Below are positions 22,209 through 56,174 of a stretch of 64,000 nucleotides of DNA, one piece after another. The notes beneath the pieces are model-generated. The model did not search any database. It had not been told where the DNA came from and was given only the letters and a program-made list of their open reading frames with translations. How positions within the stretch are numbered: position 1 is the first letter of the stretch; every line of letters begins with the position of its first letter. A program made the translations under genes and the position numbers. Location: positions 22,237-86,236 of the forward strand of contig JBLHMK010000001.1 of assembly GCA_047621945.1 (NCBI GenBank), read 5' to 3'. This DNA is from Flavobacteriaceae bacterium (GTDB lineage Bacteria; Bacteroidota; Bacteroidia; Chitinophagales; UBA8649).

Positions 22209-24623
22209 CTAGTATAAAATAGGAAATTTGGCAGGATTGCTTTCATGCATCATCATATAGACTGCTTCAAAAACATCTTCTGCATTTGGCTTGCTAAAGT
22301 AATCGCCATCCGTACCATAAGCACCTCGATGAGCCTTAGCTGTTATCGTAACAGGTGCAGCATCTAAATATTTATACCCTTGTTGCTCTTCTAAAACCTT
22401 TTGCATCATGTATGCACTTGCTCCACCAGGAACATCTTCATCAAAGAAAACTACTCGATTAGTTTTCTTCACTGATTTTACGAGATGATGATGAACGTCA
22501 AAAGGTAAAAGACTTTGAATATCTATAAGCTCTACACTAATACCTTGTTCTTCTAGTTGCAATATAGCTTTATCTGCAATTCTAACACAAGAACCATAGG
22601 TAACAAGCGTAAGGTCATTTCCTACTTGTAAGGTTTCTGGAACGCCAAGTGGCAAACAAAATTCTTCAAGATTATCCGGCATAGTTTCTTTCAAACGATA
22701 GCCATTCAAGCACTCAATGATAAGTGCAGGTTCATCACTCTTCAACATAGTGTTATAAAAACCTGCTGCTTGTGTCATATTTCTAGGAACAAGAATGTTC
22801 ATACCTCGAAGTGAGTTAATGATCATTCCCATCGGAGAACCTGTATGCCAGATGCCTTCTAGGCGATGTCCTCTACTTCGAATAATTAAAGGGCAACGTT
22901 GTATCCCGTTAGTTCTGTATGTTAATGAAGCTACGTCATCGCTTAGTGGTTGTAGCCCGTATATCAAATAGTCTAAATATTGGATTTCAGCGATAGGTCT
23001 TAAGCCTCTCATGGCCATACCTATGGCTTGCCCAACAATCGTTAACTCACGTATTCCAGTATCAAAAACACGATGAATCCCATGTTTTTCTTGTAGTCCA
23101 GCAAATCCCTGATTAACATCCCCAATTTTACCTACATCTTCACCAAATGCAATTACACGAGGATCTCTTTTTAGCATAAGATCAAATGCGGTATTAAGAA
23201 TTTCAAAACCATTTTTTTCTTCACTAGTAGAAGAAAATTTTGCACTCACTTCTTTTACTTTTAAAGCAGCATAAGGAGTTTCACTGTGAAGGTGAGTATT
23301 GAACGTCACTCTTGCTTCCGCTTCAAAATGATGTAGCCAGTTACTCAATTCCTTTTTTGCATCATGGGTTTCCCTTCCAATTATTCTAAGTATACGTTTT
23401 GCGCTTTCTACCAAGTCCTTGTTTACCGGGTTGTATGCAGACTTCAAATCTTTTGCAACTACCGCAATTTTATCTTTTAAAGGAGAGGCTTGCTCCAGCT
23501 TTGAAATAAGCGTTTGCAATTCGGCAATTTTCGATTTAATAGGTTTATTAAACTCACTCCATGCAGTCTTCTTACTTTCTAAAACATGCTGCTTCGCTTC
23601 TTTTTCTATTTGCTCTAACTCAGCGTTACTAGCTAATTTATTATCTTCAATCCACTCCCGCATTTTCTTTAAACAATCGAAGTCTACTTCCCATTGTAAT
23701 CGTTCCTTTGATTTGTACCTCTCATGCGAACCTGAGGTACTGTGACCTTGAGGTTGGGTTACTTCAGTAATATGAAACAAAGCTGGAATTTGCTTTTCTC
23801 GAACCAGTTTAATTCCTTCTTCATATACCGCGCACAATTCTGCATAATCATAAGCTTTCGCTTTAAAAATATACATCCCATTTCCATTGTCATCTATGCG
23901 AAACCCTTCTAGGACTTCAGAAATGTTTTCTTTGGTTGTTTGATACTTTTTAGGAACGGAAATACCATATCCATCATCAAAAACAGTGAATGCCAATGGA
24001 ATCTTTAATACACAAGCTGCATTGATACTTTCCCAGAAGTGACCTTCAGAAGTGCTTGCGTCTCCAATAGTTGCAAAACAAACTTCGTTGCCCCCATTTG
24101 AAAAAGGATTGTCACCCTGTAACTCTTCGTTATTTCTATAGAATTTTGATGCTAAAGCTAAACCAATTGCTCGAGGCATTTGACCGGCAGTACATGAGAC
24201 ATCTGCAGCAGTGTTGTATCGATTTTTTAACTCCAACCATTCTCCATCCTTATCAATCAAAGGAGAAGCGAAGTGACCATTCATTTGCCGACCATTACTA
24301 CTTGGGTCTGCACCTGGCTGAGAATCTGCATATAACTGAGCATAAAACTGTTGAACTGTAATCAGTTCTTTAGCAAGCATTAAGGTTTGATCTCTATAGT
24401 AACCCGAGCGAAAATCACCTTTGTCAAAATTCTTTGACATAGCAACTTGAGCCAACTCTTTACCGTCCCCAAATATTCCAAACTTGGCTTTCCCGGTAAG
24501 GACTTCTTTCCTTCCCATTAAGCTAGCCTCTCGACTTACAACAGCCAATCGGTAGTCCTCCAACACTATTTTTATGTAGTCTTGTTCGATATTCCCTTTA
24601 GTGTTTTTGGTTTTTGTGGACAT
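22209..24623 (-). CDS. Fused alpha/beta E1 component of a 2-oxoacid (branched-chain-type) dehydrogenase, TPP-dependent
   Basis: About 800-aa ORF. N-terminal E1-alpha-like half with a TPP-binding region (IGDASTSEGHFWESINAA) and C-terminal E1-beta/transketolase-like half. The start is moved to Met16 (MSTKTKNTKG) because an exact TAtaTTTG box lies between that ATG and the track's TTG start. Confidence 0.85.
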   Translation of the reverse strand: MSTKTKNTKGNIEQDYIKIVLEDYRLAVVSREASLMGRKEVLTGKAKFGIFGDGKELAQVAMSKNFDKGDFRSGYYRDQTLMLAKELITVQQFYAQLYADSQPGADPSSNGRQMNGHFASPLIDKDGEWLELKNRYNTAADVSCTAGQMPRAIGLALASKFYRNNEELQGDNPFSNGGNEVCFATIGDASTSEGHFWESINAACVLKIPLAFTVFDDGYGISVPKKYQTTKENISEVLEGFRIDDNGNGMYIFKAKAYDYAELCAVYEEGIKLVREKQIPALFHITEVTQPQGHSTSGSHERYKSKERLQWEVDFDCLKKMREWIEDNKLASNAELEQIEKEAKQHVLESKKTAWSEFNKPIKSKIAELQTLISKLEQASPLKDKIAVVAKDLKSAYNPVNKDLVESAKRILRIIGRETHDAKKELSNWLHHFEAEARVTFNTHLHSETPYAALKVKEVSAKFSSTSEEKNGFEILNTAFDLMLKRDPRVIAFGEDVGKIGDVNQGFAGLQEKHGIHRVFDTGIRELTIVGQAIGMAMRGLRPIAEIQYLDYLIYGLQPLSDDVASLTYRTNGIQRCPLIIRSRGHRLEGIWHTGSPMGMIINSLRGMNILVPRNMTQAAGFYNTMLKSDEPALIIECLNGYRLKETMPDNLEEFCLPLGVPETLQVGNDLTLVTYGSCVRIADKAILQLEEQGISVELIDIQSLLPFDVHHHLVKSVKKTNRVVFFDEDVPGGASAYMMQKVLEEQQGYKYLDAAPVTITAKAHRGAYGTDGDYFSKPNAEDVFEAVYMMMHESNPAKFPILY

Positions 24624-24657
24624 ATTAATTGCTTTGATTGTTTTGTATTTGGAACTG

Positions 24658-24665
24658 CAAATATA
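24658..24665 (-). promoter_or_regulatory. Bacteroidota -7 promoter box (TAtaTTTG) for the E1 gene
   Basis: The plus strand reads caaatata, which is TATATTTG on the minus strand, 34 nt upstream of the ATG at 24623. Confidence 0.45.
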
Positions 24666-24759
24666 CAAATTGCGAGGCGAATCTAAGCGTTAAATGCATG
24701 TTAATGATTTGTATGGTTTCAATTTTATTCCTTACTTTTAAGTCATAAATCAAAATACT

Positions 24760-25683: not shown

Positions 25684-25693
25684 ACCATTGTCC

Positions 25694-26716
25694 ATGAAAA
25701 AAGTCCTTTTAATAAGTATCCTAATTCTTGGAATTATTTTGGTAGGGCTATCTATACTTTGGAATGTAAGGCCTGCTCCTGATGCTTTATCTGAATACAA
25801 AGTTGACCATAAAGAAGATTCTTACTTGGACGGACTTACTGTTCAGTTTTTAGGTAATACGAACCTTGTATTTAGCGATGGTGAAACAAGTATAATGACT
25901 GATGGGTTTTTTACTCGCCCCAATGCATTTACCATACTTTTTGGTGAAGTTGAACCGGACATTAAACGGGTAAAAGAGAATTTGCACAACGCTGGCTTAG
26001 AAACTTTGGATGCAGTTATTCCTCTTCATTCTCACTTCGATCATGCCATGGATGCCGCGCTTGTAGCAGATCTGATGAATGCTCAATTGATAGGTTCTTC
26101 CTCTACTATTAATATCGGTCGAGGCTACGGACTTCAAGAAGAAAGTATGAGTATTCCTATATTGAATGAGCCTTTTAATATTGGGGCTTTTACTCTAACT
26201 TTTTTAACTTCTAATCATTGGCAATACCCTGACAAAAAACAAAGAGATTTGTTATTGAATCAGGATATTGAAGAACCTTTAATTACACCTGCATCTATCT
26301 TTGATTACAAAGAAGGAATCAGCTATATGATACTATTAGAACATGGTAATCATAAAATTGCCATTAATGGAAGCGCTGGATTTAAAGTAAATACAGTAGA
26401 AGACTTTGACGCTGATATTAGTTTCTTATCTATTGCAGGCTTAGAGTTAATGGACGGCGATTATAATCAAGGCTATCAAACTCATGTTATAGATGCAGTC
26501 AATCCGGAAGTATTAGTTCCTATACATTGGGATGACTTTACTATTCCACTTTCTGAAGGATTAAAGACCACAAATATGCTGGTAAACTTTAAAATGGGTA
26601 GCGATTTAAGTAAAGCTTTTGAAATCATTGAAAGCAATAATTTACCTCAGAATAGAAAGATAAAAGTACTTCCGCTTTGGGAAATAATATCAGTTAAGGA
26701 ATTGATTGAAAACTAA
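25694..26716 (+). CDS. MBL-fold metallo-hydrolase, membrane-anchored
   Basis: HxHxDH motif (PLHSHFDHAMDA). N-terminal TM/signal anchor MKKVLLISILILGIILVGL. ATG at 25694 is preferred over TTG at 25688. Confidence 0.75.
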   Translation: MKKVLLISILILGIILVGLSILWNVRPAPDALSEYKVDHKEDSYLDGLTVQFLGNTNLVFSDGETSIMTDGFFTRPNAFTILFGEVEPDIKRVKENLHNAGLETLDAVIPLHSHFDHAMDAALVADLMNAQLIGSSSTINIGRGYGLQEESMSIPILNEPFNIGAFTLTFLTSNHWQYPDKKQRDLLLNQDIEEPLITPASIFDYKEGISYMILLEHGNHKIAINGSAGFKVNTVEDFDADISFLSIAGLELMDGDYNQGYQTHVIDAVNPEVLVPIHWDDFTIPLSEGLKTTNMLVNFKMGSDLSKAFEIIESNNLPQNRKIKVLPLWEIISVKELIEN

Positions 26717-26719
26717 GCC

Positions 26720-28060
26720 TTAGAATATAGGTGTATCAATAAAAATTCTGACGTTTCCATCTTTGTCTTTTGAAGTCTCTTTAAATTGCTCATACAATTC
26801 TGGTCTGTCGTAAATTACAAAGTAATTGAAAGGGTCATTGATTATACTGTTCTTTATCTTGATAAAAGGATCTCCAGCATATGAGTTGTACAAACCTAAT
26901 TTCACATCTTGCTCTTTGTAATACTTTTGAGCAATACCTCGATACAATTTATCGACGGTTTCTTGGTCTCCAACCGTCATCCAAGTAAACAACAATTTGT
27001 CAGTTAGTTTTAAGCTTGCTAGGACTTTAAAAATCCCTTTAGGATTGTCTAGCATGAAAGAAAAATAATCTCCCCAATTAACCGCAACACAAGCCGCTTT
27101 CATTTTGCCATTTTCATCAGCCAACATGTAAGCGCCTGAAGTTTTTGAATAATTCACGATTCGTTCATAGAAATGATAGAATTCTTCAAAACTAGGATAT
27201 TGATTGAACATGTAATTCCCTCGATGGGCTTGACTCATGTCGAACAATTCTTCTAGCCGAACTTTATCATGTGTAATATCTACTAATTGTTTGCGATACT
27301 TGGTGCGACCATAAAATAAAGAAAGGTGTGAGTTGTTGGTAACAGGCCAAATATCCCATTTCTTATTGTAATGTTCTGCTAATTTTTTTAACGCACGATT
27401 AATTCTTTCGTTTGCTTTACCCATTGCCGCATAGACAAAGTGAACGTTATTTTGATTAACTAAGTCTAACAAGATGGTAAACATGGTAGAAAATACTCCC
27501 GTACGTCTATATATTTTTTGACCATTTCTAAGGCCTTCACTAATTCGAAGTAAGTTATAATAATATCCTTTATGTCGTTCTTCTCCTTCTAATCCATCGG
27601 TAAATTCAAATTCATTTGCATGCACATAACCGGCCAACTTATAGGGACACAAACCTTCTGCATCTTTTTTATCTTCTTCAACATCTAAAGCTAATACAAC
27701 TATAGCGTTGTCGTTTATTGACTCCAATGAAGCAGGCACATCGTGAAAGTATATTTGAAAATTCAGTTTACCTTCCGTTCCTTTATCATCTTGATGTTTT
27801 TCTGGAACAGAGATGACTTCTTTACATTCACCAAAAAAGTAATCTAAATCGCCTTTTAATCCGAAAAGTTGAAAGAGTTTATCTGCAGAATGCAAGTACT
27901 TAATAGGAAATGCAAAAAGTGCTAATCGGCCATCAAAACGGTCGAGACAATCTATTTGAATAGTTTTATAGTTCAAAGTGCCCTTACCTTCTATGGTAAT
28001 GCTATCTTTTGAATCATGAATATTATCTTCGAAAAAATAATGATAATTTCTATGTTTCAT
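26720..28060 (-). CDS. Conserved hypothetical protein, possible tandem GNAT-like N-acyltransferase
   Basis: 446-aa ORF 32 nt downstream of the Spt-like gene. No signal peptide or TM segment. The segment LLRISEGLRNGQKIYRRTGVFSTMFTILLDLVNQNNVHFVYAAMG resembles a GNAT beta4-alpha3-beta5 core. The functional call is inference only. Confidence 0.35.
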   Translation of the reverse strand: MKHRNYHYFFEDNIHDSKDSITIEGKGTLNYKTIQIDCLDRFDGRLALFAFPIKYLHSADKLFQLFGLKGDLDYFFGECKEVISVPEKHQDDKGTEGKLNFQIYFHDVPASLESINDNAIVVLALDVEEDKKDAEGLCPYKLAGYVHANEFEFTDGLEGEERHKGYYYNLLRISEGLRNGQKIYRRTGVFSTMFTILLDLVNQNNVHFVYAAMGKANERINRALKKLAEHYNKKWDIWPVTNNSHLSLFYGRTKYRKQLVDITHDKVRLEELFDMSQAHRGNYMFNQYPSFEEFYHFYERIVNYSKTSGAYMLADENGKMKAACVAVNWGDYFSFMLDNPKGIFKVLASLKLTDKLLFTWMTVGDQETVDKLYRGIAQKYYKEQDVKLGLYNSYAGDPFIKIKNSIINDPFNYFVIYDRPELYEQFKETSKDKDGNVRIFIDTPIF

Positions 28061-28092
28061 GGCTTGGTTTGGTGTTTGGATAATGAAACTGA

Positions 28093-29283
28093 CTAAATAA
28101 GGCCTATTTTTTTACCTATTTTTTTAAATGTACTAACGATGTATTCTAGATGCTCTGGCTCATGAGTTGCCATGTAACTTGTACGTAACATTTGCATGCC
28201 AGGAGGTATTGCCGGTGAAATAAAAGCGTTTACAAAAACACCTTCATCATAAAGCATTCTCCAAATTTTAAAAGTCTTTTCATCATCCCCAATAATAACA
28301 GGAACAATGGCAGTTTCGCCATCCACCACTTGAAAGCCTGAGTCTTTTAATCCTCGTCTAACAAACTCTGTATTGGCACAAACTTTTTTAGGTAAATCCG
28401 GATTAGCTTTCAATACTTCAAGCGCAGCTAAAGCACTTGCCACTGAGGCAGGTGAGGGCGATGCACTAAAAATTAAAGCAGATGATTTATGTCTTAAATA
28501 GTTGATTACCTTTTCTTCGCCTACCACAAAACCACCAATTGAGGCTAAGGTTTTGCTGAAGGTGCTAAGTATCAAGTCTGCATCATCTTGCACGCCAAAA
28601 TGATGAGCGGTTCCTCTACCACCAGGGCCGATAACACCAAAAGCATGAGCATCATCTACCACTACATTTGCATTATATTTTTTCCCTAATGCAGTCAACT
28701 GGTCTAGTGAAACAATTGACCCAAAGGTGCTGAAAACCCCATCGGTCGCAATCAATTTCCCATCTTCTAAAGGAAGCTTGGAAAGTCTCTTTTCAAGGTC
28801 TTCCATATCATTGTGTCGATATCTAAGCACATTGATGTTTAAGCTGGACGCAATCATATTTCCCGCTACAATACTTGCATGATTATCTCTATCTGAAAGA
28901 ATATGTTCTCCTCTTCCAACTAATGGAGTTATTACACCTTGCCCTGCTTGAAAACCCGTGCTAAAAAGTAAAGCTGATTCTTTGCCCATAAATTTGGCAA
29001 TCTTATCTTCCATTTCAACGTGTAAATCGATGGTCCCTGTTAGGAAACGGGAACCAGAACAAGATGTTCCATATTTTTCAATAGCCTTAATTGCGGCTTC
29101 TTTAACATGCGGATGAGTGGTTAATCCAAGGTAGTTGTTTGAACCTGCCATTACTACTTTCTTACCTTCCATGGTAACCACTGGTCCTTCACTATCTTGT
29201 ATTTCTCGAAAATAAGGGTAGATTCCTTGCTCTTTTACTTCTTCTGATCGATTAAAAGCTCTGCATTTATCTAAAATCTGCAT
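28093..29283 (-). CDS. Alpha-oxoamine synthase family PLP enzyme, serine palmitoyltransferase / cysteate-acyltransferase-like
   Basis: Motifs GIYPYFREI, GSNNYLGL, VVDDAHAFGVIG and STFSKTLASIGGF (PLP lysine). Overall closer to bacterial Spt than to BioF by eye. The start is moved to Met8 (MQILDKCRAF). Confidence 0.8.
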   Translation of the reverse strand: MQILDKCRAFNRSEEVKEQGIYPYFREIQDSEGPVVTMEGKKVVMAGSNNYLGLTTHPHVKEAAIKAIEKYGTSCSGSRFLTGTIDLHVEMEDKIAKFMGKESALLFSTGFQAGQGVITPLVGRGEHILSDRDNHASIVAGNMIASSLNINVLRYRHNDMEDLEKRLSKLPLEDGKLIATDGVFSTFGSIVSLDQLTALGKKYNANVVVDDAHAFGVIGPGGRGTAHHFGVQDDADLILSTFSKTLASIGGFVVGEEKVINYLRHKSSALIFSASPSPASVASALAALEVLKANPDLPKKVCANTEFVRRGLKDSGFQVVDGETAIVPVIIGDDEKTFKIWRMLYDEGVFVNAFISPAIPPGMQMLRTSYMATHEPEHLEYIVSTFKKIGKKIGLI

Positions 29284-29352
29284 TATTACTAGTTTAAATT
29301 TCAAGCGAAGTTACTTTTTTCTTATTATTGCCATTCAACTTACACACAGAAT

Positions 29353-30345
29353 ATGTCCGACAAGCTTAAAATAGTACTAACAGGAGGAAATGGTTTCTTA
29401 GGAAGTCATCTAGTGGATAGACTCCTATTGGAGAATACCGAAGTTCATTGTATTGTGCGTGAATCAAGCAATTTAAAATGGCTTAATGGCAAAAACATAC
29501 ACATTCATACTTGCGGTTTGAAGGATATTGACGCTATGTCTAAGGTGTTTGAAAATGTGGATTACATTTTTCATCTGGCGGGAGTAGTAGCCGCATTGAG
29601 CTATGAGGATTACTATTATGGTAATGTAGAGCTGACGAAAAATTTATTAGAAGCTGCCCTACCACATAAGGAGGGTTTAAAGAAGATTGTAGTTACTAGT
29701 AGTTTAGCTGTAGGTGGCCCTTGCACTAAAGAAACTCCTATTGATGAAACCGGTGGATTTAATGCGATTTCTTTATATGGCAAAGCAAAAGTAGAGCAAG
29801 AGCAACTATGCGCTCAGTATTATAATCGACTTCCTATTACAATTGCGCGACCTTCCGTAATAAGTGGAGAAAGAGAAGTAGAATTGTTTGAATTTATCAA
29901 AACAGTAAATCAAGGCTTGGTGCCTTTAGTGGGCTCCGAAGACAAGTATGTGGGTATCGTAAATGTAAAAGACTTAACAGAAGGATTCTATCAAATGGCG
30001 TTATCAAGTAATACTGCTGGGGAAGCTTATTATATGAGTTCGGAAGAAGTCATTTCATGGAAAGAACTTGGGGAGATTTGTGCAAATAAATTAGGTAACA
30101 AACCGCTGTATCTGCACTTACCCCATTTTGTTATTCGCTCAGCAGGAGCTATTGCTGGATTTTTCGGGAAGCTAAGTGGCAAGGCGCCAACATTTGATGT
30201 AGAAAAGGCAAAAGAAGGGGTCGAAAGTGCTTGGATATGTAAGGTGAATAAAGCCAAAAGTGACTTTGGCTTTGTACAGACGGTTTCTATCAAAGATGGG
30301 GTGGAACAAGCTATTGATTGGTATAAAGAAAATAATTGGTTGTAA
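29353..30345 (+). CDS. Extended-SDR NAD(P)-dependent epimerase/dehydratase-family reductase
   Basis: 330-aa ORF. Rossmann motif KIVLTGGNGFLGSHL and catalytic YGKAK. Divergent from the Spt-like gene across about 70 bp. Confidence 0.8.
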   Translation: MSDKLKIVLTGGNGFLGSHLVDRLLLENTEVHCIVRESSNLKWLNGKNIHIHTCGLKDIDAMSKVFENVDYIFHLAGVVAALSYEDYYYGNVELTKNLLEAALPHKEGLKKIVVTSSLAVGGPCTKETPIDETGGFNAISLYGKAKVEQEQLCAQYYNRLPITIARPSVISGEREVELFEFIKTVNQGLVPLVGSEDKYVGIVNVKDLTEGFYQMALSSNTAGEAYYMSSEEVISWKELGEICANKLGNKPLYLHLPHFVIRSAGAIAGFFGKLSGKAPTFDVEKAKEGVESAWICKVNKAKSDFGFVQTVSIKDGVEQAIDWYKENNWL

Positions 30346-30433: not shown

Positions 30434-30745
30434 ATGATAGGAAAATGGATTAAAAAGTTTTTAGGAATGCCAGATGCGGATGAGTTAAAATCTTTTGCAG
30501 AGAGAGGGGCTGTAATTATTGATGTGCGAACCAAGGGAGAATTTCAATCAGGACATGGAAAGAATGCTAAAAACATTCCACTTGACCGAATATCCACTGA
30601 AGCAGGAAAGATAAAAGCGATGAAAAAACCGATCATTGTCTGTTGCCGTTCAGGAGCAAGAAGTGGTCAAGCAGCTACTATTTTAAAAGGCAAGGGGATT
30701 GACGTAATGAATGGAGGTGCTTGGCAAAATGTAGCCAATCTCTAA
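30434..30745 (+). CDS. Rhodanese-like domain protein
   Basis: 103-aa single-domain ORF with active-site loop CCRSGARSGQAA. Confidence 0.85.
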   Translation: MIGKWIKKFLGMPDADELKSFAERGAVIIDVRTKGEFQSGHGKNAKNIPLDRISTEAGKIKAMKKPIIVCCRSGARSGQAATILKGKGIDVMNGGAWQNVANL

Positions 30746-30748
30746 ACA

Positions 30749-32290
30749 CTAGTCGTGTTCGTCTTTACCATATAGGTATTCACCAACTTTCACTTTACCA
30801 TAGATATCTTCAAAGTGTTTATATTCTGTCATGGTAACCCTTCTATTGATGTGCTTTCTAGTAATCTCATCAGTATGTTTTAAACCGGCAGCAGCTAAGA
30901 GTTCTACTAATGATTCGATGGTTTCATGATGGTAGTTGGCTACATGTTTTTTCTTTTCTTTTACGACAAGACCTTGCATTAAACTATTGTTTTGGGTGGT
31001 TATACCTGTTGGACAAGAGTTGTTATTGCATTCTAAAGCTTGAATACATCCTAATGCCAGCATCATAGCACGAGCAGAATAACATACATCCGCTCCTAGT
31101 GCTATGGTTTTAATAATATGGAAGGCGGTTGTTATTTTACCAGCTGCTATAATTTTGATGTGCTTTTTAATATTATAACCCACCAAACAATTACTGGCAA
31201 ATGTCAAGCCGTCCTTGTAAGGCATTCCCACTGAATTGGTGAATTCTAATGGTGCAGCACCGGTCCCCCCTTCGCCACCATCTATGGCAATAAAATCGGG
31301 ATAAATGTCTAAACGAATCATGGTCTTGCAAAGGGCATGAAATTCCTCTTTACTTCCTATACATAGCTTAAATCCTACAGGTTTTCCATCGGATAACTCT
31401 CTTAGCTTTTGAACAAATTGAATTAATCCTTCAAATTCTTTAAAAGCCCTATGATAAGGCGGAGAATAAACAGTTTTTCCAACTTCCACGTTTCTAATTG
31501 CGGCTATTTCTTTTGTTACTTTTTTGCCAGGTAAGATTCCTCCATGACCGGGTTTAGCTCCTTGTGAAAGCTTCAGTTCAATCATTTTAACTTCTGGTCT
31601 TAAGGCATTTTTTCGGAACAAATCTCCGTCGAAATTCCCTTCTTTATCTCTACAACCAAAATACCCCGTTCCTACCTGCCAAATAAGATCTCCCCCAGGA
31701 TTTAAATGATAAGGGCTAATTCCTCCTTCACCGGTATTATGCGCAAAATGACCAATTTTTGCACCGCCATTTAAGGCTTCAATAGCATTAGCACTTAAGG
31801 AACCAAAACTCATAGCTGAAACATTCAACACACTAGCGCTGTATGGTTGCTTGCATTGATGATTCCCAATAGTAACTCTAGGGTCTTGATCTAAATCCTG
31901 AGGATTTAAAGAATGGATACAGTGATTCATCCATTCATATCCTTCAGCATAAATATCTAATTGTGTTCCAAATGGAGCACTATCTAAGTCTTTTTGTGCG
32001 CGTTGATAAACGACACTTCTACTTATTCGATTAATTGGAGTTCCATTGGTATCAGACTCTACAAAATACTGGTAGATTTTGGGGCGAAGTTCTTCCATTA
32101 AGAAACGGCCATGTCCTAAAACTGGAAAATTTCTTACCACAGGGTTAATACTAATATACATGTCATACAAGCCAAGAAGAATGATTGGGGCCAAAATAAT
32201 TAGGAACCAAAGTAGGGAAGTCCAAAGTACAGAAAACCCTAGTATTAGGGCGATAGAAATAATGCAGAATAATAAAAACGGTTTGCGCAT
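30749..32290 (-). CDS. FMN-binding glutamate synthase family protein (GltB domain 2-like), membrane-anchored
   Basis: Two N-terminal TM helices and a TIM-barrel FMN domain with DGGEGGTGAAP. The start is moved to Met16 (MRKPFLLFCII). Confidence 0.85.
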   Translation of the reverse strand: MRKPFLLFCIISIALILGFSVLWTSLLWFLIILAPIILLGLYDMYISINPVVRNFPVLGHGRFLMEELRPKIYQYFVESDTNGTPINRISRSVVYQRAQKDLDSAPFGTQLDIYAEGYEWMNHCIHSLNPQDLDQDPRVTIGNHQCKQPYSASVLNVSAMSFGSLSANAIEALNGGAKIGHFAHNTGEGGISPYHLNPGGDLIWQVGTGYFGCRDKEGNFDGDLFRKNALRPEVKMIELKLSQGAKPGHGGILPGKKVTKEIAAIRNVEVGKTVYSPPYHRAFKEFEGLIQFVQKLRELSDGKPVGFKLCIGSKEEFHALCKTMIRLDIYPDFIAIDGGEGGTGAAPLEFTNSVGMPYKDGLTFASNCLVGYNIKKHIKIIAAGKITTAFHIIKTIALGADVCYSARAMMLALGCIQALECNNNSCPTGITTQNNSLMQGLVVKEKKKHVANYHHETIESLVELLAAAGLKHTDEITRKHINRRVTMTEYKHFEDIYGKVKVGEYLYGKDEHD

Positions 32291-32395
32291 AACTGAATAA
32301 TTGTAGGTCGCAAAGTTGCTTAAGTTTTTGCACAATTCAAACCTTTATAATTCTAGAGCTTATTCTTATCTTTAGGATTATCTGAAAACTATATT

Positions 32396-53625: not shown

Positions 53626-54576
53626 CTATTTCAAGCCAATTTCTCTTAATCGTTGATCCAAGTACTCTCCAGAAGTAATAGGTTTGTAGTTTAATGGATT
53701 GTCCGTTGTGATACAACTTTCAAGACAAGTCAAATTCATGTTACTTCTTGGGTGTAAGAAGAATGGAATAGAATACCTTGAGGTATGCCACATTTCTCTT
53801 GGTGGGTTAACTACTCGATGCGTGGTTGAACGTAAAACATTATTAGTTAAACGTTGTAACATATCACCTACATTGATTACTAGATGTCCTTCTGGAGCAT
53901 TTACAGAAACCCAGTTTCCGTCTTTATCTTTCACCTGAAGCCCTTCAGCTGAAGCACCTGCAAGCAAAGTAATCAAATTAATATCTTCATGCTGCTCTGC
54001 ACGAATAGAAGACTTGGGTTCACCTTGAATAGGTGGGTAATGGATAGCTCTTAATATGCTATTTCCATTATGTATTTTGGCTTCGAAATAATACTCGTCT
54101 AGATTTAAATATAAGGCGATAGCTCTTAACAAAAGGGCACCAGACTTTTCAAATGAAGTATATAACTTACGACCAATTTCTTCGAAATCAGGCAACAAAT
54201 CTACTACGATATTCGAGGGATATTCTTTTGAAATTTTATCGCCATCAGTTACTTCTTGGCCCATTTGCCAAAATTCTTTTAAATCAGGAGCATCAAAACC
54301 TTTCGCGTGCTCTCTACCGAAGCTAGTGTAGCCCCTTTGTCCAGCGTTTGCTATATCTTCATACTTCAACTTAGTTGTAGTGTCAAATTCAAAGAAACGT
54401 TTCACTTGCGTATAGAATGCATTAATATATTCATCTGGAACACCGTGATTCTTTACGGTGACAAATCCAACATCTTTCCATGCCTTTCCTAACTCTGCAA
54501 TAAATTCTTGACGTTGAGCGTCATTACCCGTCGCGAATTTTGATAAATCAACTGCAGGAATACTTGTTACAGCCAT
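53626..54576 (-). CDS. 2OG-Fe(II) oxygenase (isopenicillin-N-synthase-like family)
   Basis: 316-aa ORF. Iron-binding HxD (AEQHEDINLITLL) and distal His plus 2OG-binding Arg region (STTHRVVNP...RYSIPFF). Confidence 0.8.
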   Translation of the reverse strand: MAVTSIPAVDLSKFATGNDAQRQEFIAELGKAWKDVGFVTVKNHGVPDEYINAFYTQVKRFFEFDTTTKLKYEDIANAGQRGYTSFGREHAKGFDAPDLKEFWQMGQEVTDGDKISKEYPSNIVVDLLPDFEEIGRKLYTSFEKSGALLLRAIALYLNLDEYYFEAKIHNGNSILRAIHYPPIQGEPKSSIRAEQHEDINLITLLAGASAEGLQVKDKDGNWVSVNAPEGHLVINVGDMLQRLTNNVLRSTTHRVVNPPREMWHTSRYSIPFFLHPRSNMNLTCLESCITTDNPLNYKPITSGEYLDQRLREIGLK

Positions 54577-54611
54577 AAATAGTAAGTTTAATTGAATACA
54601 AAATTAAGCAA

Positions 54612-56174
54612 TTAATATGAATCCTTATGAATTTGCTTTATTTCAATGAATTTTAGAGGGGTCTCTTTATCGTATATATATAACTGCCCATGCAAAATGT
54701 TTCTTTTTTGAAGGAATGCGATGGCCTCACTTTCATCCTTAATTTTAAGTACATTCCGTTGGGCGTAAAAAATTATTTGCGGATCAACGCTTAACTCTCC
54801 CTGTACAAAAACCACATTATCAGGAGGTGTTTGTTCTTTGATGCTAGTTCCTAGAATTTGGCTTTGTGCATATATATCCCCTCTTAGAGACTCTTCTCCT
54901 GGTGGGTTAATATAGTAATAGGAAGCTAGGGAGGCTATGACGACAAATACAATACCCAAACGCAGCTGAGTCATAGATAAGGTTTGCGATTTCTTAAGCT
55001 TATCAAAAAGAATCCCAATCAACACACTTAAAAAAAGTGAACCGTATAGACTTACAAAGTCGTGGCCTGAATAATTCAATAGAAAGATATGTAAGAGTAT
55101 TACTGGTAATGTCGATAGCCAAAGAAACCGGTATCCATTTTTGGTGAAAACTATTCTCAATTTAGCTTTGCTAATAGTCAAATAAACGAAACTCCCAAGC
55201 AAAAGGAATAGCGGTAAATAACTAGTAACATATCCTTTGAGCATGCTAAGAACTAGAAAAGCAATCTGTTTAATTTGACTACCAAAATTTGAAGTTTCAG
55301 ATAAACTCCCTCTTTCAGTCATACGATTTAACATTTGATCTAAATAGGCTTCAAAACCTGCAATCTGGCTGTACTGAAAAACGAATAAGGCAACAGCCGC
55401 AATACTTACGAAGAGTGTAATTAGGTTAATTGGGATGTACACTTTAGTTTTTCTTAGTTTAATAAAGGAATACAAAAACACACTAAATGCAAAAAATAAG
55501 CCTAGCCATGAAGTATAAATCATTAAAAACAAAAAGATTGCATAATGAACGAGGTATTTTGGCGAAAAGAAACGCTTACGCATTAAGAGTTTCAATATGG
55601 TGTAAACATTTAGAATGAAAAAGAGGTGAACCAGCATGTCACTCATGTAGGTATTGCATTGAAACCATAAGACTCCTTGGCTAAATAAATACACTGATAC
55701 CCCTACAATGCCTGACCAGTATGTTCTGGCAAAAGGTTTTTGTTGCCCAAGCAGGCAAACAATCAAATAAATAAAAAGGGCACAGATTAAATTGATGACT
55801 AAATGAAATATCTGTAAAGCCAAAACCGTGGGCTTTACATGTAATATTTTAAAAAAAATATGTGGCAAGATGAAAGCAAAGGGCGGATGAGATACATAAT
55901 AGTAATTCCCTGCTTCATCTAGCATTTCACCTGTAGTGCTTGCCCAGTTATTCAAGTGTTTGTTGGCTGCGCCTGGATAGCTCATAACAGGGCTGAAGCC
56001 ATATTTCATAGCTCCTTCGGTAGACCAAATGTCTAAAACCCTAAGCGAAACCGCACTGACGAATTCATGATGCTTAGATAATGGTCGATTTATATTAGGT
56101 AAACGAACCAATACAGAAAGCATGAATATGCCTATGATTATGAGAAAGGGGAAAATGGAAATTGTTCTTTTCAA
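54612..56174 (-). CDS. Polytopic membrane protein, possible GT-C (ArnT/PMT-like) glycosyltransferase
   Basis: 520-aa ORF with about 12 predicted hydrophobic helices and a C-terminal soluble domain. The architecture resembles GT-C enzymes, but no diagnostic motif could be confirmed. Confidence 0.4.
   Translation of the reverse strand: MKRTISIFPFLIIIGIFMLSVLVRLPNINRPLSKHHEFVSAVSLRVLDIWSTEGAMKYGFSPVMSYPGAANKHLNNWASTTGEMLDEAGNYYYVSHPPFAFILPHIFFKILHVKPTVLALQIFHLVINLICALFIYLIVCLLGQQKPFARTYWSGIVGVSVYLFSQGVLWFQCNTYMSDMLVHLFFILNVYTILKLLMRKRFFSPKYLVHYAIFLFLMIYTSWLGLFFAFSVFLYSFIKLRKTKVYIPINLITLFVSIAAVALFVFQYSQIAGFEAYLDQMLNRMTERGSLSETSNFGSQIKQIAFLVLSMLKGYVTSYLPLFLLLGSFVYLTISKAKLRIVFTKNGYRFLWLSTLPVILLHIFLLNYSGHDFVSLYGSLFLSVLIGILFDKLKKSQTLSMTQLRLGIVFVVIASLASYYYINPPGEESLRGDIYAQSQILGTSIKEQTPPDNVVFVQGELSVDPQIIFYAQRNVLKIKDESEAIAFLQKRNILHGQLYIYDKETPLKFIEIKQIHKDSY

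Follow-up and report, generated by a model that had tools for sequence, protein, structure and literature searches.

A three-gene locus within a 64,000-nt stretch of DNA from an uncultured Flavobacteriaceae bacterium (Chitinophagales in its GTDB lineage; assembly GCA_047621945.1, contig JBLHMK010000001.1, positions 22,237-86,236; this whole stretch is called the window below) appears, on balance, to encode a compact module for making the (dihydro)ceramide backbone, in which a protein of 446 amino acids (aa) would N-acylate the product of serine palmitoyltransferase (Spt). The locus comprises an alpha-oxoamine synthase (AOS) of the Spt type, the gene of the 446-aa protein directly downstream of it, and a divergently oriented gene for an extended short-chain dehydrogenase/reductase (SDR). 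A first-pass annotation of the window had suggested that the 446-aa protein is the N-acyltransferase of a sphingoid- or capnoid-lipid pathway, possibly from a divergent or undescribed family. We infer the N-acyltransferase function from the predicted tandem GNAT fold, which resembles that of N-myristoyltransferase (NMT), and from the synteny with Spt, and to that extent the earlier suggestion is supported. What would be new here, and is somewhat probable in our judgement, is a ceramide-backbone module of a known kind whose acyltransferase is predicted to come from an undescribed NMT-like tandem GNAT family.

The AOS, as judged from its sequence, is a serine-type Spt. It belongs to the Pfam family Aminotran_1_2 (E 2.8e-52), and the best of 41 NCBIfam models is NF047600, the equivalog model of Bacteroidota Spt (SerpalmtaseCFB), at 502 bits, which is below the curated cut-off of that model (640 bits). 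The scores for Kbl and BioF are 369 and 359 bits; a grouping of the AOS with either of these enzymes, which the first-pass annotation had named as grounds for refuting its proposal, is not seen. The best match in the Protein Data Bank (PDB) is the Spt of Sphingobacterium multivorum (SmSpt; PDB entries 3a2b and 8guh; 408 bits and 48% identity), followed by Sphingomonas Spt (~271 bits), Kbl (~260 bits) and the cysteate acyltransferases 28eh (233 bits) and 7u7h (220 bits).

The active site was compared with SmSpt using the residue roles described for that enzyme (PMC10196870). N52, Y54, G80, S81, H138, S185, D210, H213, T241, S243, K244, F272, S273 and R367 (SmSpt numbering) are kept both in the AOS and in all 41 orthologues that are linked to a 446-aa gene, and the AOS also keeps A274. 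This set includes the lysine that carries pyridoxal phosphate (PLP) together with the PLP anchors (K244, H138, D210, H213, T241, S243 and S273), and the residues that contact serine (N52, Y54, G80, S81, S185 and R367); the lysine of the TFSK motif, previously read as the PLP lysine, indeed aligns with Lys244 of SmSpt. All pair-linked orthologues share the substitutions S53N, A79S and M271I relative to SmSpt, which lie outside the direct serine contacts, M271 of SmSpt contacting the substrate only through its main chain. Position 79 of SmSpt corresponds to Cys133 of human SPTLC1, a neuropathy site linked to altered amino-acid preference, and position 53 matches Asn177 of human SPTLC2. Orthologues of the AOS are found at 67-92% identity in many Bacteroidota metagenome-assembled genomes (MAGs) and at 70% in cultured Marivirga harenae, and the orthogroup is a separate Chitinophagales/Cytophagales group that bears only a generic NCBI name. 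By these comparisons the AOS is a distinct Spt orthogroup and not an aberrant enzyme. The earlier description as an Spt-like protein stands, and the enzyme is not very divergent, at 48% identity to SmSpt and 70% to the stand-alone Marivirga orthologue.

The same residues bear on the possibility, raised in the first-pass annotation and in keeping with a Bacteroidota host, that the module makes capnine or a sulfonolipid, with the AOS as cysteate acyltransferase, the SDR as dehydrocapnine reductase and the 446-aa protein as capnine N-acyltransferase. In favour of this reading, a sulfonolipid N-acyltransferase was not found named in the literature searched. The sole reported active-site difference between Spt and the cysteate-specific SulA is Lys281 of SulA, which is alanine in Spt, and the SulA variant K281A is inactive (PMC9304779). 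The corresponding residue is alanine in the AOS and in 41 of the 41 pair-linked orthologues, and the cysteate acyltransferases match the AOS far less closely than Spt does (220-233 against 408 bits). The capnine or sulfonolipid reading is therefore rejected, and we regard it as very improbable.

The 446-aa protein has no match in Pfam or NCBIfam, and searches of PDB sequences with the single protein and with a profile returned noise only. Scans of Pfam and NCBIfam at E<=10 with the protein and with all 38 aligned members of its family gave no consistent family. Among 5.8 billion proteins, a word-indexed search brought up no more than 50 relatives; none has a Pfam domain, and those with a name are called hypothetical. 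A HMMER profile scan of 1.84 billion cluster representatives gave 38 matches, about eight of them full-length (all of these from MAGs of the Chitinophagales/Saprospirales type) and the rest fragments, and no credible relative outside the family at E<=0.001; two weak hits beyond it, P0080 and P0084, were discarded as unrelated or uninformative. The expectation that the protein comes from an unannotated family is confirmed by these searches. In a scan of one genome per species (185,579 species) 125 relatives were detected, and the 80 that were retrieved are from MAGs labelled Chitinophagales, Saprospirales/Saprospiraceae, Sphingobacteriales or generic Bacteroidota, with one exception labelled Verrucomicrobia. 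Their samples were of freshwater, marine, bog and wastewater origin.

A model of the 446-aa protein was built with AlphaFold2 from the 38-sequence alignment (predicted local distance difference test (pLDDT) score of 88.4 and predicted template modelling score (pTM) of 0.87), and it predicts with high confidence a two-lobed tandem GNAT. Foldseek comparison with the PDB gave 125 hits at E<=0.001, led by N-myristoyltransferases (top hit 1iyl, E 5.6e-10, template modelling (TM) scores of 0.47/0.54 over 396 columns). These are followed by the Eis-like tandem GNATs (PDB entries 2hv2, 3n7z, 2i00, 6rfy and 2ozg) and the tandem-repeat GNAT MAB_4324; for NMT, the Eis-like proteins and MAB_4324 the Foldseek probability is 1.00, with alignments of ~330-430 columns. 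The top 50 structural matches are acyl-CoA-dependent enzymes, and neither FemX nor MprF is among them. Residues 172-214 (RISEG...YAAMG), which had been picked out from the letters as a likely GNAT beta4-alpha3-beta5 core, map to a strand (162-173), a hairpin, a helix (186-203) and a further strand (208-214) of the model, forming that unit of the N-terminal lobe. The second half, thought to be of similar character, is modelled as the second of two consecutive GNAT folds. The check for an acyltransferase-like fold with AlphaFold and Foldseek that the first-pass annotation had called for thus returned a tandem GNAT, with NMT and Eis-like matches first.

The 38-sequence alignment contains 33 invariant columns, many of them polar; the invariant polar or charged residues include E87, H89, H147, N149, R172, S174, R185, D331, D397 and D409. 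Where helix alpha3 begins in the N-terminal lobe, Y184-R185 is invariant and R186 nearly so, within a pattern Y-R-R-x-x-[IVLM]-F in which the glycine is variable, and the C-terminal lobe has an invariant N339-P340-x-G342-x-F344 loop. Both elements, Y184-R185-R186 and N339-P340-x-G342-x-F344, are putative binding sites for the pantetheine diphosphate. Low confidence (pLDDT below 50) is confined in the model to residues 84-98, which include V85, E87, H89, G94 and G97, all invariant or nearly so; the appearance is that of a flexible, conserved lid or catalytic loop, and V85-x-E87-x-H89...G94..G97 is a putative catalytic element. The chain stops exactly four residues past an F-x-[D/E] motif in all 87 members (those of the related loci and of the window), and the last residue is leucine in 72, isoleucine in 7, phenylalanine in 5, threonine in 2 and valine in 1. 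The C-terminal carboxylate of NMT is its catalytic base, and the fixed-length C-terminus of the 446-aa protein, with its hydrophobic ending, is suggestive because it recalls this arrangement.

Neither lobe has a canonical counterpart of the Q/R-x-x-G-x-G/A pyrophosphate motif at beta4-alpha3. Such degeneration of the CoA-binding glycine motif could be expected of a non-catalytic pseudo-GNAT that regulates Spt or channels its product, loosely like the small subunits and ORM regulators of eukaryotic SPT, and the gene is always directly downstream of Spt when the two are linked. The many invariant polar and charged residues and the fixed C-terminus are instead typical of an active site, and the family persists at loci away from Spt; we therefore consider a pseudo-GNAT decidedly improbable and take these features as predicted signs of an active enzyme.

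The second line of evidence is gene linkage, which was analysed in 86 related loci and the window, 82 of them having enough upstream sequence to test for Spt adjacency. An Spt orthologue lies directly upstream on the same strand in half of the testable loci (41 of 82), usually with a gap of 7-170 nt. The linked loci are spread over at least four deep clades of a neighbour-joining tree built for the 446-aa proteins; across these clades the 446-aa protein drops to 41-47% identity, Spt has 64-92% identity, and the flanking genes apart from the pair are almost wholly different. A pair that is kept while its neighbourhood is reshuffled is the classic signature of functional coupling, and the co-conservation of the 446-aa gene with Spt that the first-pass annotation had anticipated is borne out by the 41 loci and their spread over the tree.

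Other neighbours that recur beside the family are lipid enzymes of a sphingolipid or acyl-CoA type. A lipid kinase of the YegS/Rv2252/BmrU family is encoded directly upstream of Spt on the same strand in four loci (L021:3468-4379; L023, L024 and L025); it has the DAGK_cat and YegS_C domains and, at 125 bits, scores above the cut-off of TIGR00147. Bacterial ceramide and dihydrosphingosine kinases fall within the wider lipid-kinase family of the YegS type (bioRxiv 10.1101/2023.05.01.538943), and the enzyme at these loci could phosphorylate sphingoid bases or ceramide. A neutral/alkaline ceramidase (PF04734, 347 bits) is encoded three genes from the 446-aa homologue, past two CoA-transferase subunits, in eight loci of a clade without Spt adjacency (L080:8698-10473; L070, L072 and L081-L085). 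A 594-aa acyl-CoA dehydrogenase and a thiolase are encoded directly downstream of the 446-aa homologue on the same strand in five loci (L053:7415-10500; L052, L054, L055 and L062), which belong to a clade that also keeps the SDR.

These neighbourhoods have to be set against a function outside sphingolipids, such as the fatty acylation of protein N termini or lysines, as in NMT, or the acetylation of small molecules or antibiotics, as in Eis, with the adjacency to Spt an inherited accident. NMT and the Eis-like enzymes are the best fold matches, and about half of the loci have no adjacent Spt and present neighbours such as DprA, ClpB, an M1 peptidase and DUF6044. An accident of inheritance agrees poorly with a pair that persists over at least four deep clades amid reshuffled surroundings, and with independent sphingolipid-type neighbours (ceramidase, lipid kinase and SDR) in different clades. 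We consider this explanation improbable.

One MAG, bog_950, has two paralogues of the 446-aa protein, the first next to Spt (locus L032) and the second in locus L043 (1652-13124). The second follows a DUF6044 membrane protein and an MptB-like membrane glycosyltransferase and is followed by two classical SDRs and a BioF/Kbl-like AOS; further open reading frames (ORFs) there look, by translation only, like a phosphopantetheinyl transferase, FabD and a hotdog dehydratase. The region may be a separate lipid or polyketide cluster. The AOS at L043 was considered as further support for the Spt link and rejected; it is BioF/Kbl-like and not Spt-like, and is therefore not independent support.

The third protein of the module is of the extended SDR class (TGxxGxxG and YxxxK motifs, here GGNGFLG and YGKAK), with Epimerase as its Pfam family (E 7.8e-32) and HpnA (113 bits) and the long-chain 2-alkyl-3-oxoalkanoate reductase OleD (83-92 bits) as its best NCBIfam matches. 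In Sphingomonas the gene order is epimerase-family SDR, acyl carrier protein (ACP) and Spt. By analogy with the published Caulobacter gene order, this SDR is presumed to be the ceramide-pathway reductase CerR; it was the only ceramide-pathway partner found, with no gene for the bacterial ceramide synthase bCerS within 10 kb of the Sphingomonas Spt. The window SDR aligns with the presumed CerR from end to end (24% identity, E 2e-23, 85 bits), and both proteins rank HpnA above OleD. The closest solved structure is a GDP-sugar 4-epimerase (PDB entry 8rdg, 84 bits). At 10 loci, which belong to two well-separated clades, the corresponding divergent gene encodes an SDR that clusters with that of the window (71-78% and 37-39% identity to the window SDR). 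Because the epimerase scores equally, the assignment of the SDR as a 3-keto reductase rests mainly on its position and is plausible but ambiguous. The class and the placement of the SDR next to the pair are as first described; the reductase role is weaker than was implied, because the SDR accompanies the pair in 10 loci only and has a sugar epimerase as its closest solved relative.

In the pathway that we propose, Spt would make 3-ketodihydrosphingosine (3-KDS) by condensing L-serine and a long-chain acyl thioester, as the conservation of its active site suggests. The 446-aa protein, a soluble NMT-like tandem GNAT that is presumed to be co-transcribed with Spt, would acylate the C2 amine of 3-KDS (or of sphinganine), with acyl-CoA or acyl-ACP as the donor of the fatty acyl group. 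Fold and synteny point to this role, in which it would do the job of bCerS, an enzyme to which the profile searches show no sequence link. The divergent SDR would act like CerR and reduce the keto group at C3; this reaction, likewise suggested by fold and synteny, is the weakest link of the scheme.

The fold has a bearing on the nature of the second step. FemX/MprF-type transferases also have the tandem GNAT fold, and a fold match does not identify a substrate. The 446-aa protein might thus modify a sphingolipid in some other way, by aminoacyl-tRNA-dependent aminoacylation, O-acylation or head-group acylation of ceramide, while a canonical bCerS encoded elsewhere in the genome makes the amide. 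One member of the family, P0027, gives the sole trace of a GNAT at the level of sequence, a weak one that supports the predicted fold: PF13480 (Acetyltransf_6) matches its residues 254-335, where the C-terminal lobe starts, at 21.5 bits, just short of the gathering cut-off of 22; none of the 38 members reaches the gathering threshold of a GNAT family in Pfam. PF13480 is a general GNAT-domain family that we take to be close to the FemAB type, and a near-threshold match to it fits a modifying enzyme as well, as do the half of the family that is unlinked to Spt and the Marivirga Spt that has no partner. The structural matches favour acyl transfer, the top 50 being acyl-CoA-dependent (NMT, Eis-like proteins and MAB_4324) to the exclusion of FemX and MprF. 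The tight pairing with Spt, together with the SDR in two clades, fits a core step in making the backbone better than a decoration, and the module holds no glycosyl- or phospho-transferase for a head group. We consider such a modification unlikely, and return to N-acylation of the Spt product as the favoured function.

Several observations weigh against that function. About half of the 446-aa family is not adjacent to Spt, and the unlinked genes have DprA, ClpB, a DUF6044 membrane protein or an M1 peptidase as neighbours. The orthologous Spt of cultured Marivirga stands alone, without a 446-aa partner, which agrees with the published finding that known sphingolipid-producing Bacteroidota do not cluster their three ceramide genes (PMC11334938). 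The SDR resembles a sugar epimerase (84 bits) as much as it does the presumed CerR (85 bits). Many members depart from the canonical GNAT Q/RxxGxG/A motif in having lysine or arginine in place of G188. An internal duplication was sought by comparing the N- and C-terminal halves with hhalign, and the sequences of the two lobes show no significant similarity (E 0.1-0.2).

The layout of the module is given in Table 1. The three ORFs, their coordinates and their motifs (YPYFREI, SNNYLGL, DDAH and TFSKTLASIGG in the AOS; GGNGFLGSHL and YGKAK in the SDR) are those of the first-pass annotation, which had also put the two minus-strand genes 32 nt apart and the distance to the SDR gene at ~70 bp. All of this is reproduced by the ORF list and the translations, the distance to the SDR gene being 69 bp, and the 32-nt spacer lies within the range found between Spt and the 446-aa gene on the same strand at related loci. 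The AOS gene has an alternative TTG start at 29304 (ORF 28093-29304); tblastn matches of orthologues start at the ATG (29283). A hydrophobicity check of the three proteins found no segment of transmembrane grade, and the 446-aa protein is predicted to be soluble and cytoplasmic, as bCerS is. Scans around the module for sigma-70 promoters, terminators and the Bacteroidota -7 motif performed no better than chance and gave nothing in the intergenic regions. The 69-bp region contains no sigma-70-like site or exact Bacteroidota -7 motif, and its promoter role is therefore assumed from geometry alone. No Rfam family reaches its gathering score anywhere in the 64-kb window.

Table 1. Genes and intergenic segments of the proposed ceramide-backbone module, in window coordinates
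Feature	Position	Strand	Remarks
AOS of the serine palmitoyltransferase type	28093..29283	-	396 aa from ATG; Pfam, NCBIfam and PDB matches
446-aa soluble protein of an unannotated family, predicted tandem GNAT (NMT/Eis-like) fold	26720..28060	-	Candidate N-acyltransferase acting on the Spt product
Extended (epimerase/dehydratase-type) SDR, 330 aa, divergent from the Spt gene	29353..30345	+	Candidate 3-keto reductase, role uncertain
Divergent intergenic region between Spt and SDR genes, 69 bp	29284..29352	.	Presumed promoters for both genes
Spacer between Spt and 446-aa genes, 32 nt	28061..28092	-	No terminator-like site; presumed co-transcription

The module is flanked in the window by genes of various kinds. 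A metallo-beta-lactamase-fold protein with weak Pfam hits and a strongly hydrophobic N terminus is encoded at 25688-26716 (+), convergent with the 446-aa gene and 3 nt from the stop of the latter, and is a neighbour unique to the window. Further on, an 819-aa ORF at 22209-24668 (-) reads in translation like a fused alpha and beta E1 component of a 2-oxoacid dehydrogenase. It is kept beside the module in the closest loci (cluster c35, L007-L010) and could supply branched-chain acyl-CoA primers. On the other side, the gene at 30749-32335 (-) encodes a 528-aa protein that has hydrophobic helices at its N terminus and the flavin mononucleotide (FMN) domain of glutamate synthase (PF01645, E 2e-86); it adjoins a small rhodanese gene (30434-30745), a homologue of which is also found near the SDR in L009, L053 and L055. 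At 53626-56174 (-) lie a 316-aa ORF and a 520-aa membrane ORF that match in size, order and strand a pair at L001:3371-5924. The latter is located just upstream of Spt and the tandem GNAT gene, and its counterpart in the window is 25 kb away. The 317-aa protein of L001 carries DIOX_N/2OG-FeII_Oxy domains; the homology of the two pairs is judged from sizes and gene order only.

The known bacterial ceramide pathway consists of Spt, bCerS and CerR (CCNA_01220, CCNA_01212 and CCNA_01222 of Caulobacter; cerS BF9343_4218 and cerR BF9343_4240 of B. fragilis), of which Spt and bCerS are cytoplasmic and soluble (PMC11087976). The window module is like it in offering the same three roles, a PLP-dependent condensing enzyme, a soluble N-acyltransferase and an epimerase-type SDR, and in the clustering of the genes, as in many bacteria outside Bacteroidota; in the known sphingolipid producers among Bacteroidota the three genes are not clustered (PMC11334938). 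It is unlike it in the window SDR, which is 24% identical to the presumed Sphingomonas CerR, and in the acyltransferase. A profile of the 446-aa family finds only its own members in 1.84 billion representatives at E<=0.001, an indirect comparison in which no relationship to bCerS appears. The 446-aa proteins would therefore not be scored as bCerS by the BLAST criteria of surveys (PMC11334938). The association with Spt and the SDR shows the 446-aa protein working alongside Spt as bCerS does, and does not show membership of the bCerS family.

NMT (PDB entries 1iyl, 1nmt and 5uut) is the best global structural match of the 446-aa model, with both lobes aligned over ~400 columns. NMT is a eukaryotic, fatty-acyl-CoA-dependent N-acyltransferase that acts on the N-terminal glycine of proteins. 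The 446-aa protein and NMT further resemble each other in having a fixed-length C-terminus with a hydrophobic ending and basic residues where helix alpha3 of the N-terminal lobe begins. The two differ in sequence (10-13% identity) and in structural detail (TM scores of 0.47-0.54 and a root mean square deviation above 6 Å), and none of the 38 members of the 446-aa family matches an NMT domain in Pfam, the likeness being in the fold only. The Eis-like and other bacterial tandem GNATs (2hv2, 3n7z, 2i00, 6rfy and MAB_4324, PDB entry 7q3a) share the two lobes, a similar size, a bacterial origin and solubility. They are more distant in structure (TM scores of 0.31-0.45), have no detectable sequence relationship to the family and no link to Spt, and transfer acetyl groups, either to aminoglycosides or to unknown substrates. 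The pathway of SulA/CapB/CFAT and CapC/KCR likewise combines an AOS and then a reductase in Bacteroidota with an N-acylation step, and differs in that the window AOS has the Spt-type alanine, not the SulA-type lysine, and is much closer to Spt.

Surveys have scored the potential of bacteria to make sphingolipids by BLAST matches to Spt, bCerS and CerR; many Spt-positive lineages seem to lack the latter two, for which 'replacement by alternative non-homologous proteins' has been invoked (PMC11334938). It is possible, and we put this forward tentatively, that the 446-aa family is an independently recruited ceramide synthase, an NMT-like tandem GNAT that N-acylates 3-KDS in uncultured Chitinophagales without bCerS. 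The locus offers a specific, clonable and testable candidate for the missing N-acyltransferase of Spt-positive bacteria without a recognisable bCerS, from a wholly unannotated family in widespread freshwater, marine and wastewater Chitinophagales. If this is true, the family would be a concrete case of such replacement, bacterial ceramide synthesis would gain a further marker gene, and the GNAT superfamily would have arrived at ceramide N-acylation more than once. It would also provide a bacterial, lipid-directed relative of the NMT-like fold for structural comparison, and a further type of ceramide synthase after the eukaryotic Lag1/CerS and the bacterial bCerS.

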